The notes beneath the pieces were generated by a model. It ran no database searches. It was not told where the DNA came from and was given only the letters and a program-made list of their open reading frames with translations. Below are positions 197-48,098 of a stretch of 64,000 nucleotides of DNA, in pieces. How positions within the stretch are numbered: position 1 is the stretch's first letter; each line of letters begins with the position of its first letter. The stretch spans positions 24,242,001-24,306,000 of the forward strand of contig CM069157.1 of assembly GCA_035221665.1 (NCBI GenBank), in the 5' to 3' direction. The stretch comes from Okamejei kenojei. Lineage: Eukaryota. Both the position numbers and the translations under genes were made by a program.

Positions 197-990
197 AACG
201 GTTAGGATGTTATGATGCAGCTCTATAGGACTTTGGTTAGACCACATTTGGAGTATTACGTACAGTTCTGATCACCCCATTACAGGAAAGATGTGGAGGC
301 TTTGGAGAAGGTGCAGAGGAGAATGCTCCCTAGATTAGAAGGTTTCAGCAAAAGGGAGAGGTTGAGTAGACCTGGATTGTTTTCTTTGGAAGATGCGAGG
401 TAGAGGGGAGATGTGATAGAAGTATGTAAAATGATCAGTGGCATCTGTAGATAGGGAAAACAGGTAAAACCATTTTTCCAGGTTGGAAATGTCCAACACA
501 AGACAGTATAGCTACTGTATAAGGTGAGAGGGGGGAAAGTTGAATGCAGCTGTGTGGGGCAAGTTTTTTTTACACAGACAGAAGTGGAGGCCTGGAATGC
601 ATTGCCAAGTGTGGTGGCGGAGGCAGATACAATGGCTGCATATATTTAGATAGGCACATGGTTGTGCAGGATCTAGTGGGATGTAGATCATGTATAGGCA
701 GATCAGTTAAACTTGGTATTATGTAGGAAGTAACTGCAGACGCTGGTTTAAACCGAAGATGGACACAAAACGCTGGAGCAACTCAGCGGGTCAGGCAGCA
801 TCTCTGGAGAGAAGGAATGGGTGACTTCCAGAGTCTGAGGAAAGCTCTCGACCTGAAGCAGCACCCATTCCTTCTCTCTAGAGATGCTGCCTGTCCCACT
901 GAGTTACTCCAGCTTTTTGTGTCAAACTTGGTATTATGTTTGATACAAACATTGTGGGCCTATTCCTGTGGTGTACTGTTCCACATTCTA
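197..990 (+). mobile_element. CR1/HER1 LINE 3' fragment, interrupted at 725-923
   Basis: Decayed peptide DVMMQLYRTLVRPHLEYxVQFxSPHYRKDVEALEKVQR, typical of the CR1 ORF2 C-terminus, followed by a CR1-type 3' tail. Confidence 0.85.
725..923. mobile_element. Penelope-derived short element in inverted two-arm form, with 16-bp TSD
   Basis: aaacttggtattatgt at 709-724 and 924-939; arms at about 763-826 and 864-923 are reverse complements. Confidence 0.8.
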
Positions 991-1207
991 TGCTCTCTCA
1001 GTTTACTGTGTTTAATAATTACACGTCCTTTTTTATATTGTACTGAAATTATGCAAATAAATGTTGACTGGAAATATCTCTGATTATGATACATGAGTGG
1101 GAACTTTGAATAAATAGTCAAAGGTTCTCAAGGCACATAATTGAAGTCCCTGTTATTCCTTACTCTTTCCTCTTGCACCTCGAGTCAAACAGATTCTGTG
1201 CAGGCAG

Positions 1208-1298
1208 CCTGAAGAGGGTCTCGACCCGAAACGTTGCCTATTCCTTCTCTCCATAGATGCTGCCTCCCCGCTGAGTTTCTCCAGCATTTTTGTCTACC
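1208..1298 (+). mobile_element. Penelope-derived short element with hammerhead-like core
   Basis: ctgaagagggtctcgacccgaaacgttgcc...gctgagtttctccagcatttttgtctacc; same family as 22849, 28784, 49712 and 53735. Confidence 0.8.
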
Positions 1299-1740
1299 TA
1301 TGCAGGAAGGCCACCCTCTCCCTCTAGCATTACAATGTTTTCCTCAATCAATGCTGGCAAACTCACTCATTTTCTTATTTCCACTTACTATCCCAAACAT
1401 TTTGAATCCAATATTGGTAGTCCAGTCCTGTCCAGGTTTGTGCCACATTTCGTTTATGTGCCCTATAGATCACCAACCTGGTGTTCTGTGCATTCACCCA
1501 TTTCCGCTGTAACGTGGTCCTGTAAAACTGGACTCTTGTCTATCTCTACTTGTTTACATTATTTCTCCTTTCTAGTTTCTTAATCACATTCTTCTGCCAA
1601 ATTTACCATGAGAAAACATTCCTTTGAGGATGCTTATCGAAAATCTGTTGAGGCCAACTTCCCCAGAACTGCACTTAATACAATCCCATGCAGTGACCAA
1701 TTCTGTAAACTACTCAAGGATAATACTGAGGATTATTATA

Positions 1741-1769
1741 TCTATAATAACGGGCCCCACTTGGTCTAG
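1741..1769 (+). mobile_element. Possible 29-bp mini-Helitron (termini only)
   Basis: A|TCTATAATAACGGGCCCCACTTGGTCTAG|T: 5' TC, 3' CTAG, inserted between A and T. Confidence 0.4.
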
Positions 1770-3826
1770 TATACATATATAATTTACTACAGCTCATTTT
1801 ACTTTGTACATCATATTTTGTCCCACAGCAATTATAATTTTATAAAGATTGAGCCACCTGGTCATCTCCATATAGGCTACCGGTCATTAAATTATTATAT
1901 TTAAAGAATGCTTTTTGATTCGACTGTTACTCATCATATACCTAACACTTATATTGCAAATGTAACATGCTTCCACTGAAGTGTTAATTTGTGCATTTAG
2001 AACAGCACATAACAAAGTTTCATAAACAACTTCAGTATGAATTATTATTGTTTGGAAAGTCGCCAAGTAGAGCCGCTAATTCTATTTGTAAATATGAACT
2101 GCGCACTACTCCATATTGACCACAAATGAACAAACTATTTAAAAAAAAATAACTACTTCATTTATCTTGAGTAAAATCCGTGAAGTCTAGGCACCATTAA
2201 TTGTCCAAGGTTAGTGTGCAGAGGAAACCGTTTCAGGAACTGAAATTTCCGCATGCAAAGAATAACCCATCATAAAAAAAACCTGCTATCAATTATTTCA
2301 TTTTGAAAGAGCATTCCAAGTATTGTGCAGTTTTGTGAAATTATTTTGCATTCTAATAGATTTGTTCAAAATCAATCTTACTTGGCATGATGCACCAATA
2401 AACAATTAGATTTATTGTTCGTAATCCGGAACCTGATAAATCAAAGAAAAAACTTTACATTTTTCCTTTTAATTTCAGATGAGTTTTATATTCCCCCTGC
2501 TATCTTTCCTTTACTGGAAATGTTCCAATTTGTTTTTTGAAATAACTCCAAATGTGCACGAAAATCTTCAATATCCTTGCAGTTATGCTTATGAAGTGTT
2601 CAATATTCTTGCAGCTTTGCCTGTGAAGTGTTCAACTTCAACTTCCCTGAGACTGTGCTTGCATTTCAAGTACCTTTTTGCATTTCACGCCAATGCCTTC
2701 TATTTACTTATTCTTTACCAGCTCTGTTTCTCTGCACACATTATATATTTAATAGAGTTTACAACAACTGAGGCACCACAGGTCACTTGAGCCTATGCAT
2801 GACAACAAACCAGTTATGTATCATGTGTCCCATGCTGAGAGTCATTATTCAGGAAAGGTTTCCCAGCATAAAAACTAAACAGGACACAGAGATGTTAAGC
2901 AAGAAGAAAGAACAACATTCAGAATGACAGAAAATAAATCAAAGGGTAAAAAATGGAAAGACTAAGAAAGTAATTTACAACGTGTTAGTTACATATGTCC
3001 TGCATTTACAGACCATTATTCCAAATCAATGTGAAGGATAGCTGCACTATTCAGTTTAGCAAACTTGACAAATTAAGCTGTTTTTGCCAAAATGTTGCAG
3101 CACTGACTAAAAGTACCAGTTAAATGAATGATTGTTACTAACCACATGATTATATTCTAAAATTATGTCAATTTGTACACGTGACAATAAATGACCTTTG
3201 AAACCTTTGAAAACCAAACTTAAAATGTATTCCATTCCATCGAATGTCGGACATCCTTGAATGTCGGACATTTATTCCATTTAGGAGCATCATATAACTA
3301 TTTCTAAAGCAGCATTGCCATATTCGAAGAATATTAAAATAATATTCCTTCCACACACTTCCATTTTCGGAAGGGTAGCTTTGGTTGTGCACAACGTTAC
3401 AGTTCGTGAGGGGAGAGAATCGTGTTTGGAACACGTCCAATTGCAGCAACAGGCCTTACCTGTTTGTTTTAGCCCACAGTATTACAGCCAAACTATTTTA
3501 TCTGGCAAGGAAACTTCTCACATGCATCAATATATTAGCTTATGCAAAATGTATAAAATTCAATCCACAAAGATTTGTAAAGTGTCAACATGTTCATTCA
3601 TCTGCCTCAACATCTGCTGAAGGTTAGAATTGTTAGGATTGGGGTGAGTTTTGGATGAATAACTCAACAGCTCAATTTAAAGTGCCTGACTGTCTCATTT
3701 CTGCCTAGGGAGTTGGATTAAAATCATCCAACCCATTATATGTTATGACTATAAGGTGAAAACAAGTATTTTTGTTCAAGATAGAAATCAGTGATAACAA
3801 TAATCAGATCACATTATATTCTTTAT

Positions 3827-3917
3827 TCTGAAGAAAGGTCTCGACCCGAAAAGTCACCAATTCCTTCACCTCCAGAGATGCTGCCTGTCGCACTTAATCA
3901 CTCCAGCATTTTGTGTT
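3827..3917 (+). mobile_element. Penelope-derived short element
   Basis: tctgaagaaaggtctcgacccgaaaagtcacc...gatgctgcctgtc...ctccagcattttgtgt. Confidence 0.75.
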
Positions 3918-6074
3918 TGTATTATTTTCTGGACCTGGAGTACTTAATCAGAATGCATGTACATGCACTGTATATATCAAATGTTTATTTAAGAGGATAA
4001 GGTTAAATATCTAAATTAAATCAGTCACTGATTGTAGATGAAGCAAAGATAAAATAATTGAAGTGTGAAAAAAATGATCTGGCCTTTTTTTAATCAGCTG
4101 AGCATTCGTAAACTACATTTTCATATTTGTTTACGAAATGAAGCCCAATCAGGTGACAGGACTGTGCAAGGAACCTAAATTACTTGACCACAGTAAATAA
4201 TATACCAATTTGGGATTTGGGGTTATAATGTGGATTTTGTGCAAAGTGCGTGCATAGAAAGTCTGACCAGATGCACTAATGACCTCTGCTGCTGGACACA
4301 GGCCGTGGACATAAAGTATTTAAGCACTGGCATAGGGGTACCATCTGCTAAAAAATATATAATTTTGGAAGAAACACTGAAATTAGTGGAATTTCTTAAC
4401 CTCCTACCAACAACTCTGCCTACCACAAAGTCTGTACTGAAATTAATTTGCTAGGTACTATTCTACAAATGGCTCTGTGTGTTAAAAAAAACTTTCCTTG
4501 CACATCTCCTTTAAACTTAGCTCCTCTCATCTTTAAGCTATGTCCTCTAGTATTAGATTTTTCAGGGAAAATTGGCCATTTTCAGGGAGTTATGCCATTT
4601 GGCGCCAAGATTCCTCTGTACATTTATTGTATATTTTCCTCTTATGTTGACCTCACAGAGTGCAGCACCTCTCACTTGCTCGGATTAAACTCCATTTTCC
4701 ATTTCGCCAACCATTTCTGTTGCAAACCGCGACATTGTCCTTTAAGATATTAAAATCAAAGCTCTGCTTGGCCAATCAAGTCATTATTCAAGTTCTTATT
4801 CCATAAAACTGGTCTGTAATTAAATGGGTTAAATTAAACCGAATGAAATCAGGAATTTTGTATTTCTCCGATTTGACGAGATGAGCAAATAATTTATTGA
4901 GCTGAAGCTGTGATTGCAAGTGTCAGCAGAAATACCTATTTCTAGCTGATTCCTCTGCAGTTCCACTAAAAGTTACATCACTGGTTAGAAAACCACTAAG
5001 AATAAACAGACCAAGCACCTTGTTAGAGATGGAAAGTAAACCCGTGTCAGAATTGACCATGTTTTCAAACAATACACACAGACCTGGTTGCCATATTATG
5101 AAAAATATGTCAAGGCACCAGCAAGGGTCCAAAGATTTAAGAGAATGATACCTGACATTGAAGATATACAGATCAGGAAAGCATGAACAGACAGAGTCTC
5201 AATTCCCCTGAGGAAAGAAGGCTGAGGGGTGAATTTATAAAAGTCTTATAATTAAGAAAGGATTTTGATATAGTTGATGCAAAGAGAGTATTACCACGTC
5301 AGGCTCTAAATAAAGGTTTTGGAATTCAGAAGAAAATTCTTTGTCCAACGACTGGTGAGAATGGGGATTTTGCAATCATAGGATGGGTCAATATCATTAG
5401 GGAAGGTTTCTACAACATATGTAGGAGAATAAATCAGAGAATTAGGCTAACGTGATGAGGATAGATGAGAGGCGGTTTAAATGGAGCATAAATATTTGCT
5501 TGGGCTAAATCGTTTCTATACCATACCTGTACAGAACTGTAGTCAGATACTTGCAGCTAGAACTAAACAATGATCAAACAGTTGACCAATTTATATCCAA
5601 AAGCAATGTGCAGAATTCAACGTCCTGCTCAACTTTTAAAGAAGTTGTTAAGCCATAATGGAAATGCTAAAGTGTTGTTTATGCAAACACCAGCTATCCT
5701 CTGGATCCCTGCTATGAGACTGTGCCACTGAAGTAACAAGTCATCATATAAACAGCAAGATCACTCCATGATGGGATGCAAGCAGATGCCTCCACATGGC
5801 ACATCCCGGGTACTGCTGACGACAGAAACTGTACCACAGTGACTGACTGATGTAGCCAATTCTGCAACCACCGACCGTCAACCATCACTGACCGACCGGA
5901 ATGACGTGATATAGAAGATGGCTGGACATGAGGAAGAAGACTCCAGGATATCTAACTCTGTGCTCAACTAGCATTTGCAAATGTAAATATTGTGGAAAGA
6001 TTCAATAAGAACTTTTAAACTGGTAATAAAATCAAACTTTTCTCAAACAAAGCATTTTTGGTGAGATAAACGTT

Positions 6075-9390: not shown

Positions 9391-10079
9391 TCTGGAAAAA
9401 ATGTTCAAACTGCATATTGCAACACTCTACAACCAAGTAGACCCTAATCTCAGTCGTCAAGTCATGACATACGGATGCTGGGTCCATCATGGGCACTGAC
9501 CTCCCACCATTGAAGGGATCAACAGGAAGTGGTGCATAAAGAAGGCCACTCATATCATCAAAGGCCAACACTACCCTCTCATTTCCCTGCTACCATTAGA
9601 AAAAAGGTACAAGAGCCTGAGAACCATTACTTCCAGGTTCAAGAACAGCTTCGTCCCATCAACAATAGCACAACCCTAATGGCCCTGTCTCACTGTGCGA
9701 GTTGACCCACGAGGTACCCCGAGTGACAGACTCGTGGTTGTGTACGAGACTTCAAGTTTATGATCAATTTTGTAACCGAGTTCCCACGGGTATGTCATTG
9801 CTGCGATGCTCCAACTTCCTCTCCCGAGTTACCAAGTTCCTCTCCCGTTACTCTTGAGCCAACTGTGAATGAAGGTATGTTTTAATAAAGCAACAATGTT
9901 AACATACATCTCCATCCTGTGGCTTTGAGTTATTTCAGCGCGGCGGCATCTATTGATATGACCTACAATGGGAAAATGCGCATCCTCCAGTAACCAATAA
10001 CGTGGTAAGTGCATTTCTTGTTGTTTTATGTTTTTAAATACTTTTTTGCAATGGATCTCTATTTTAAATAATTTTTAAA

Positions 10080-10131
10080 AAGGAAGCAGCTCGGGTGACT
10101 GACATTGAGCGACCGCCGGGACCCGACAGCA

Positions 10132-10204
<73 letters not shown>

Positions 10205-11190
10205 AGATACACACAGACAGCAGGACTGGCCGCCACTTCCGAGGAAGGAAGCAGCTCGGGTGACTGACATTGAGCGGCCGNNNNNNNNNNNNNNNNNNNN
10301 NNNNNNNNNNNNNNNNNNNNNNNNNNNNNNNNNNNNNNNNNNNNNNNNNNNNNNNNNNNNNNNNNNNNNNNNNNNNNNNNNNNNNNNNNNNNNNNNNNNN
10401 NNNNNNNNNNNNNNNNNNNNNNNNNNNNNNNNNNCACTTCCGAGGAAGGAAGCAGCTCGGGTGACTGACATTGAGCGGCCGNNNNNNNNNNNNNNNNNNN
10501 NNNNNNNNNNNNNNNNNNNNNNNNNNNNNNNNNNNNNNNNNNNNNNNNNNNNNNNNNNNNNNNNNNNNNNNNNNNNNNNNNNNNNNNNNNNNNNNNNNNN
10601 NNNNNNNNNNNNNNNNNNNNNNNCACTTCAGAGGAAGGAAGCAGCTCGGGTGACTTTGAGCGGCCGNNNNNNNNNNNNNNNNNNNNNNNNNNNNNNNNNN
10701 NNNNNNNNNNNNNNNNNNNNNNNNNNNNNNNNNNNNNNNNNNNNNNNNNNNNNNNNNNNNNNNNNNNNNNNNNNNNNNNNNNNNNNNNNNNNNNNNNNNN
10801 NNNNNNNNNNNCACCACTTCAGAGGAAGGAAGCAGCTCGGGTGACTGATTTTGAGCGGNNNNNNNNNNNNNNNNNNNNNNNNNNNNNNNNNNNNNNNNNN
10901 NNNNNNNNNNNNNNNNNNNNNNNNNNNNNNNNNNNNNNNNNNNNNNNNNNNNNNNNNNNNNNNNNNNNNNNNNNNNNNNNNNNNNNNCACTTCAGAGGAA
11001 GGAAGCAGCTCGGGTGACTAAATTTGAGCGGCCGNNNNNNNNNNNNNNNNNNNNNNNNNNNNNNNNNNNNNNNNNNNNNNNNNNNNNNNNNNNNNNNNNN
11101 NNNNNNNNNNNNNNNNNNNNNNNNNNNNNNNNNNNNNNNNNNNNNNNNNNNNNNNNNNNNNNNNNNNNNNNNNNNNNNNNNNNNNNNNNN
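10080..11190. repeat. Interspaced direct-repeat array: six copies of a ~47-bp unit; five intervals unresolved (N)
   Basis: Unit cacttc(c/a)gaggaaggaagcagctcgggtgactgacattgagcggccg at 10080 (partial), 10234, 10435, 10624, 10815 and 10988. N runs of 154, 142, 145, 129 and 156 nt. Confidence 0.95.
10133..10200 (+). repeat. (AC)34 microsatellite in the first array interval
   Basis: Read directly; flanked on both sides by gacagcag. Confidence 0.95.
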
Positions 11191-12091
11191 GGGACCCTTC
11201 TTCAGACAATCCAATGTCCCATAATATATTCTTTAAATATTAAGTTTTCTGTTGAAAGTGTGGTGCCGTGGTTACGGGTTGTCGGAAGGAAGATGATGAG
11301 GTCTGGTACAAGTTGACTTTGTTTTCAGTAATCAGGCCTCCGTGTTGGCCGATGTCTGGTTGATCGAGCGCTCATACAGTTGCGAGCGAGCGAGGTCAAT
11401 ATATAGGAGCAAGGAACGCGAAGCCTCTGAGGGTTCATTGTTCCCCTGGTTTGGATTGCTCCCAGGAGAGCGGGCACAAAGAAAAAATTTAGGCATTTTT
11501 TCTGTGGAAGGGGGGAGGGCAGTAGAAAATCGAAAGCATTGTAACAGCAGCACTCTCCCCCACACGAAACACAGCGCAGCGTAAACAATTAAACAGCTTC
11601 ACTTTTAAAAGCAAAGACACACGTTAAATTACATGGCCCCAAGAAATCGCCTCTCAATTGCTTCGGGGTTGGAATTGAAATATATATAATATATATAATA
11701 TGTATATACATATTATACTACTTTGGTTCAGTCCCTTTTCAGATTATAAAAAAGTTCCCACGATAGACTCACGAGACACTAAGGTAAACGCACGGGCCAT
11801 TACGTTACTGCAACAAGTTTAAATGTTTCCTTTTTTAACTTGAACAGTTAATTTGACTCGTGGAAAAAATCAAACATGTTTGATTTTTTTCACGAGTTAA
11901 CAAGTTTCCCGAGTACCTGCCGTTAGCGCCACGAGTGGACAAGTTGAACGCGCGAGTTCCGACGTTGCCGCTACGTTCATCGTACGTGACCACCACGAGT
12001 GAAAACTCGGGGTCACTCGTGGGCCAACTCGCACTGTGAGACAGGGGTTTAAGTATAACCCTACCTCAGCACTGAAGCTGGTAACCTGGTT

Positions 12092-47299: not shown

Positions 47300-48098
47300 C
47301 CCTAATCACTCTGATCCTTTCGCCTCTTCCACTTCTCCAGCTGTTCCTGGGGCGACCTCTTTTCCTTTTTCCTTGGGGGTTCCATTGCAGGGCTTGCTGG
47401 ATGATGTTTGTGGCTGGTTTCCTGAGGGTGTGTCCAATCTAACTCCATTTTCGCCTTCGAATTTGTAAAGGTTGCGGAAACGAGGTGAGAGGTGATGGGT
47501 TCCCATGTCGTTAGAGCTTTTCTAACGTCCTTCGTCATCATGATGGTCACACCCTCTGTATGCTTCGCTCCCACCTCTTCCTGTCCGGAGAGGATAATGG
47601 ACTGCCCGCTAACCAATTTGATCTCCGCTGACTGTGTCCATCTTGTTTCAGCCAAGCCCAGGACTAAGATATTGTAGCGCACCATTTTGTTGGCAATTGT
47701 GGCAGACTTGCCAGTCTGGAACATGGTTCGGATGTTCCATGTCCCCACAAGGATGGATTTCTTTGGCGTCAGAAGGCGTGTCAGCTTCCCAGCGCCCTTG
47801 CGGGTTTGGCTGGGAAGTGTCATGTTCCCATCGCTGGGGCACCTTCTTCAACCAAGTGTGTAATTTGGTTTTCATTCGTCAATGTTTCTGTAACTCACAC
47901 TTTTTTCCAGGTTGTGGTAGTTAACCCCACGCCCAACCCCCAACCTGGAGGATCAGGGACTGCTTCGTCTGCCTCCTCACCTGGTTTGGTTGAACCTGCC
48001 AGGGATCTGAAACCCCATCTGGCATAGCTCTCAGGATCACTGGAGTACACAAACCTCTCCTCCACACCAAGGTTGCAGTCCAGGAGGGGGCAGAAGTT
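47300..48098 (-). mobile_element. Internally deleted RTE-clade LINE: 5' UTR and endonuclease N-terminus joined to the ORF C-terminus
   Basis: ORF 47302..47823 has VGTWNIRTMFQTGK...RYNILVLGLAETRW (APE endonuclease). After ~47467 another frame reads [16 protein letters not shown]...[19 protein letters not shown]. 5' UTR carries gagctatgcc and cctccaggttgggggttgggcgtggggttaac. Confidence 0.9.

Follow-up and report, generated by a model that had tools for sequence, protein, structure and literature searches.

The repeat array at 10080-11190 of the 64,000-nt stretch of Okamejei kenojei DNA analysed here (the window) is almost certainly a compound minisatellite carried by a non-autonomous PIF/Harbinger element, with a repeat unit that matches part of a hAT-type transposon. 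The first-pass annotation of this sequence had offered as its simplest reading a compound minisatellite lying in a DNA transposon, each of its units holding a variable microsatellite, and the intervals in paralogous copies together with the ends of the element support it. The other reading offered there, a CRISPR-like array with distinct captured spacers, fails on the same intervals. Most likely, the array has no function beyond being carried.

The array and its carrier element

The six repeats reported for the window are real. The 21-nt core occurs at 10080, 10245, 10446, 10635, 10826 and 10999 with zero mismatches, and no further copy was found elsewhere in the window at up to four mismatches. 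The measured spacings (165, 201, 189, 191 and 173 bp) agree with the period of 165-201 bp given at first. The repeat length of about 47 bp does not hold for copy 1, which is truncated to 36 nt. The 47-mer is indeed visible, but it is the middle of a longer conserved segment of 87 nt (donor positions 694-780, described below), so its apparent edges are the points where masking starts. The sequence variants listed for the copies are all present. Their interpretation as a drift along the array needs correction, however, because four of the five full-length units in the window are forms that recur in other copies of the element (the last form is absent from 63 scored units), and the variants are thus mostly inherited unit types. 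The N runs between the repeats have the lengths reported (154, 142, 145, 129 and 156 nt). They are imposed masks, so their sizes and edges are uninformative on biology, and the inequality and the stops at repeat edges, which had been remarked on as unlike ordinary scaffold gaps, are no evidence. Two repeat families of the window, D1 and D2, were discarded as artefacts of the N and CA runs.

The carrier of the array is a 2,370-bp element (9680-12049) with TAA on both sides (Table 1). Its 42-nt inverted arms (9683-9724 and 12005-12046) are 90% complementary, and its right end holds a 48-nt palindrome (11853-11900). Over its first 313 nt, the element shares 91-98% identity (median 95.5%) with 35 other copies, and the genome contains 2,260 exact matches to a 28-nt pattern from the left end.

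Table 1. Features of the array and of its carrier element, in window coordinates.
Feature	Positions	Strand	Evidence or remark
Left target-site duplication, TAA	9677..9679	+	Sequence; same triplet at 12050-12052
Harbinger left end with terminal inverted repeat	9680..9859	+	82% to L096 positions 1-192
Segment common to array-bearing copies	9860..9992	+	No match to autonomous or hAT references
Start of putatively captured hAT piece (donor 393-442)	9993..10042	+	90% over 50 nt; piece internally deleted here
Unit 1, 5'-truncated (donor 727-780)	10080..10133	+	94% over 54 nt to hAT donor
(AC)34 with short GA/AC tail, variable part of unit	10133..10219	+	TRF 43.5 copies, 94%; exact run 10133-10200
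Unit 2, visible conserved part (donor 694-762)	10212..10280	+	94% over 69 nt
Unit 3, visible part	10435..10481	+	96% to donor 716-762
Unit 4, visible part, 4-nt deletion form	10624..10666	+	Commonest form elsewhere (25 of 63 units scored)
Unit 5, visible part	10812..10858	+	95% to donor 715-757
Unit 6, visible part	10988..11034	+	91% to donor 716-762; variant in 0 of 63 other units
Non-coding cargo of one sub-family	11191..11763	+	92-99% in other copies; no match to autonomous element
Harbinger right end with terminal inverted repeat	11764..12049	+	86% to L096 positions 5605-5880
Right target-site duplication, TAA	12050..12052	+	Sequence

A 25-nt core of the repeat has 4,196 exact, dispersed matches in the genome against none for its reversed control, which places the array far beyond chance. 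The first 100 matches listed, in clusters of one to five, correspond to 56 loci within the first 66 Mb of one contig, all of them N-free and each sampled through an exact 25-mer match. Extrapolation from these 56 loci gives roughly 2,300 array loci genome-wide. Both Harbinger ends were present in 34 of the 56 loci (elements of 1.6-3.3 kb), one end fell within the fetched range in 12, and 10 were without Harbinger ends. A 3-bp duplication is exact in 18 of the 34 complete copies and matches at two of three positions in nine; of the seven others, two are out of register because of a 1-nt deletion. The left triplet is TAA or TTA in 25 of the 34. Eighteen exact duplications looks low for copies that are about 4% diverged. 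Alternative duplication lengths (none, 2 bp or 4 bp), judged by eye, gave a poorer fit than 3 bp. Three of the 34 complete copies (L013, L055 and L068) carry flanking duplications of 10-12 bp in place of 3 bp, and both these and the duplications with one mismatched base may reflect repair at insertion.

These dispersed copies bear on whether the array could be a regulatory VNTR of the host specific to this locus, or an artefact of assembly, either of which we consider very improbable. Long CA tracts are error-prone, and scattered assembly indels are seen, such as the frameshifts of L135 relative to its duplicate L095. Nevertheless, the same array stands at many loci with different flanks and target duplications of their own, unit number and variants differ between loci, and contigs from public runs that carry two different organism labels also contain the unit.

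Elsewhere in the window, positions 40-169 show a diverged likeness to the right subterminal region of the element (71% over 107 nt) and probably represent one end of a related element, at the window edge. A 181-aa frame at 47302-47847 (minus strand), which by eye we take to resemble the N-terminus of a LINE endonuclease, had no Pfam match at E 0.01.

Intervals between the repeats and the CRISPR-like reading

The arrays at 34 of the 56 loci are multi-unit (at least two units) and yielded 82 intervals. All but one of these consist of a common 5' flank, a CA/GA/TA dinucleotide tract and a common 3' flank; the 82nd, in L016, keeps the tract and the 3' flank and has lost part of the 5' flank. Interval lengths in the paralogues range from 63 to 269 nt (median 137), which brackets the 129-156 nt of the masks. 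The (AC)34 run described for the readable interval of the window is exact, and with dinucleotide runs collapsed this interval is identical to interval 1 in three of 16 short-left copies (a class defined below), the rest having the same pattern. Copies that share the cargo junction of the window end without exception (19 of 19) in the flank and a CA tract of 128-446 nt, where the last mask of the window measures 156 nt. By analogy with these paralogues, the masked intervals of the window are predicted to be of the same microsatellite kind.

The homology of 81 of the 82 paralogue intervals, which differ only in their CA/GA tract, means that the intervals are not spacers. Alignment of the intervals to one another had been named beforehand as a refutation of the spacer proposal, and the DNA half of that outcome is what the paralogous copies display. 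It is therefore scarcely conceivable that the array is a CRISPR-like memory, in which constant repeats would separate distinct captured sequences that guide silencing or cutting. A conserved GC-rich repeat, a spacing of 165-201 nt and hidden intervals do give the look of one, although the resemblance is in appearance only, and this Harbinger family does take up foreign DNA in other parts of the element. Such capture would account for the repeat unit itself and for the neighbouring cargo, but not for the intervals.

CRISPR arrays are recognised by unique spacers, a near-constant short spacer length, cas genes and unit-length processed RNAs. Here the intervals, including the readable one of the window, are one homologous microsatellite-bearing sequence, their length varies (63-269 nt in paralogues, 118-156 nt in the window), and the unit variants are shared between copies and not polar. 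The genome-wide search for cas genes was a profile search for Cas1 (PF01867), which gave no match in this genome and matched 7 of 14 control genomes. The earlier statement that the window contains no nuclease gene also holds for the frames covered, as none of the 12 N-free frames of at least 130 aa had a Pfam match at E 0.01; the remaining seven window frames cross the array.

Probable donor of the unit and growth of the array

Among the 10 loci that lack Harbinger ends, eight are copies of another element, 1.45-1.65 kb long with short inverted ends. A perfect 8-bp duplication was found in seven of the eight donor elements with both ends, and from this duplication and the CAG...CTG ends we assume the donor to be hAT-type. 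Exact matches to its left end number 1,560 across the genome. The element contains an imperfect fold-back of about 480 bp (69-77% self-identity) whose left arm holds the unit once, flanked by 24-nt direct repeats that are identical at 22 of 24 positions and offset by 74 nt in the reference copy (L040). Six of the eight donors have lost part of the second direct repeat. In L039, L040, L044 and L062 the sequence around the core includes, besides this fold-back of the hAT-type donor, a fragment that to our eye resembles the 3' tail of a retroposon; an Rfam scan of one donor locus (L062) gave no hit that reached the gathering score.

In every one of the 34 complete Harbinger copies, the unit aligns with donor 694-780. 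Long-left copies have donor 393-780 uninterrupted, ending in the second direct repeat, and each extra unit corresponds to donor 694-780. Short-left copies, among them that of the window, share a common deletion that clips unit 1. The CA tract is present in all nine single-unit Harbinger copies versus none of the eight donors. Donor copies also diverge more (median identity 92.7% among them). From copy structure (a single unit, an intact fold-back and this greater divergence), rather than from a rooted test, we infer that the transfer went from hAT to Harbinger. On this basis the likely course is capture of the unit from the hAT-type element, followed by fusion with a CA tract and later by duplication.

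Homologous units stand head to tail in varying number, from one to six in the 34 complete copies, with seven in L129 and L133. Short-left copies have 2-6 units versus 1-4 in long-left copies (Mann-Whitney p = 1.5e-4, for copies that are related and not independent). In a tree of concatenated ends (37 rows, all kept), short-left copies lie inside the long-left ones, within a branch supported at 100/97, and the label needs two changes. The intermediates among the copies thus suggest an order of capture, CA tract, duplication and deletion.

A mechanism that would account for these structures begins with a non-autonomous Harbinger element copying about 390 bp of a hAT element by template switching, with an end point inside the second direct repeat, where the copied piece would be fused with a CA tract. 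Because each end of the unit has the short repeat and CA-like sequence, misaligned repair or slippage could then produce one to seven units; duplication by slippage, by unequal exchange or by gap repair would presumably be indistinguishable here. The CA/GA tracts would slip independently and thereby give rise to the unequal spacing. Lastly, transposition in trans would carry the array to roughly two thousand loci. With donor, capture point, seed repeats and intermediates in one genome, this is a traceable case of the birth and spread of a minisatellite, and the arrays, which number in the thousands and are dispersed and variable in length, could be used as markers.

The point at which array-bearing and array-less copies diverge resembles a splice donor (AG/GTA) in both (9866-9882 in the window and about 1490-1510 in L141-L148). 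This could be template-switch microhomology or a captured exon-intron border.

Autonomous partners, module exchange and known systems

Searching the genome for DDE_Tnp_4 gave 155 matches from 150 candidates scored. Of 20 matches fetched with wide flanks, six have Harbinger ends (L095, L096, L097, L102, L106 and L112). L096 is 5,880 bp long, has a TTA duplication and encodes a 443-aa transposase frame; a frame on its opposite strand has a partial MADF match (positions 1-31 of 84, 21.7 bits against a cut-off of 22, E 2.6e-4). The transposase frame of L095 matches DDE_Tnp_4 (E 1.9e-33) and HTH_Tnp_4 (E 0.0025), and its opposite-strand frame has a weak MADF match (15.7 bits); the presumed second MADF exon alone gave no Pfam match. 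As set out in the accessible text of PMC4482050, PIF/Harbinger is defined by a TWA duplication, a DDE and HTH transposase and a Myb/SANT (MADF) protein. Within PHIS, it is the TWA duplication that would assign the present family to PIF/Harbinger rather than to NuwaII or Pangu. The window copy retains about 180 nt of the left end and about 285 nt of the right end (82% and 86% identical to L096, respectively) and no coding part, so it would need transposase in trans. No description of this Harbinger family was found in the literature searched, and it may be catalogued in Repbase or Dfam.

Copies differ in the cargo that follows the array. The 573-nt cargo of the window had 1,258 candidate matches, the best 40 of which were the window itself and 39 copies at 98-99%. 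A second cargo is common to an array-less sister sub-family (1,076 candidates; all 12 fetched loci are copies of the element), and a third is the autonomous coding core. No parent locus of a cargo was found among the best 40 matches in each of the two cargo searches. The idea that the variable right halves are captured host genes can be partly rejected, since one class is the coding core of the family itself and another occurs in the array-less sister sub-family. The array also identifies a Harbinger family that is young and high in copy number and in which non-autonomous members exchange modules, the coding core among them. Separately, L132, L134 and L140 are mosaics of the reciprocal type, in which an autonomous left end (98-100% to L096) is followed by the cargo and the right end of the non-autonomous copies.

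The coding core is found fused to the array in L095, which, read with the overlapping L115 (C30), gives an element of 7,477 bp flanked on each side by TAA. It consists of a non-autonomous left end, four units, autonomous positions 916-5570 (96.5%), the second cargo and a non-autonomous right end. Where the autonomous element has positions 192-915, its native upstream region, L095 has the array, which stops 88 nt short of the transposase ATG. The frame is 441 aa long, with 425 positions identical to the L096 protein. The array-to-core junction pattern has 38 genome matches at up to one mismatch, and an array with a long core was found at four insertion sites (C30, C23, C9 and C42), but a full-length transposase frame occurs only in L095. 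L135, whose flanks are those of L095, is thus a duplicate of it and has a frameshifted transposase. In the tree of concatenated ends, a design that may mask differing histories of the two ends, those of L095 group within the non-autonomous copies (100/99) and well away from L096, which supports a late recapture of the core. Array-bearing non-autonomous ends are also joined to the autonomous two-gene core in L136, L116 and L133.

It is a bold and rather improbable extension of this that the array-bearing lineage regained autonomy, with a two-gene core recaptured whole from its autonomous relative, the minisatellite as transposase promoter in place of the native upstream sequence, and unit number tuning transposition. 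More generally, we think it doubtful that the array, a passenger by origin, would now be cis-regulatory, either as a promoter or enhancer of the transposase in fused copies or by offering additional binding sites that would promote mobilisation. The 88-nt distance in L095 and the 38 junction matches would suit such a role, as would the composition of the unit (65% GC with five CpG in 74 nt, in a window of 40% GC) and the larger number of units in the younger-looking short-left copies. Most junction copies examined are, however, deletion derivatives without a complete transposase, the full-length frame occurs at one of the four sites with a long core, and array-less sister sub-families are also high-copy (9 of 12 loci; 1,076 candidates). 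A comparison of L095:4900-5720 with public runs listed 24, all contigs and none with half of the words; one is recorded as RNA (share 0.05). Across the four runs compared (one probably DNA, two of unstated kind; repeats at 5555-5624 skipped), no listed piece bridges the array-to-core junction. If fused copies were expressed from the array, a dependent element would have turned autonomous again with a repeat as its promoter; a search with one wording in part of the literature found no report of a non-autonomous DNA transposon made autonomous by capture.

One run under another organism label contains 314 nt of the L095 transposase region (5219-5532) with one difference, plus unit sequence. A close relative, the same species under a different label and a recent transfer would each explain this match.

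Compared with known systems, the array shares with CRISPR arrays the superficial layout of a short conserved repeat at regular spacing; it differs in its intervals, which are homologous simple repeats of 63-269 nt and not unique spacers, and in the lack of a Cas1 match in the genome. The carrier resembles PIF/Harbinger transposons and their non-autonomous derivatives, as these are presented in the available portions of PMC4482050 and PMC13668399, in its TWA duplication, terminal inverted repeats and DDE and HTH partner, to which a candidate MADF frame can be added. Unlike simple internal-deletion derivatives, the copies here are mosaics of 1.6-3.3 kb with swapped cargo, and the non-autonomous ends are just 82-86% or so identical to the autonomous copies found.

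In animals, elements that acquire foreign DNA by template switching and are amplified afterwards are known, and the multicopy Pack-TIRs and the models of gap-filling and FoSTeST treated in the accessible text of PMC8277862 are similar in this respect. That paper has four multicopy cases in its reference genomes, and its main text does not contain the word 'Harbinger'. Unlike the Pack-TIRs in that text, the cargo identified here is transposon DNA (the hAT piece, SINE-like repeats and the family's own coding core), and no host-gene parent was found. That tandem repeats arise in, and are dispersed by, non-autonomous TIR elements is likewise already known, as reviewed in PMC9659126. Xstir in Xmix (Xenopus laevis), miDNA4 (X. 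tropicalis) and the lepidopteran MITE (GTCY)n are, as described there, like the present array in being tandem repeats born in and spread by such an element, with variable unit number. Unlike these, the present array has a PIF/Harbinger carrier, a unit that likely came from another superfamily (hAT-type) and a microsatellite in each unit.
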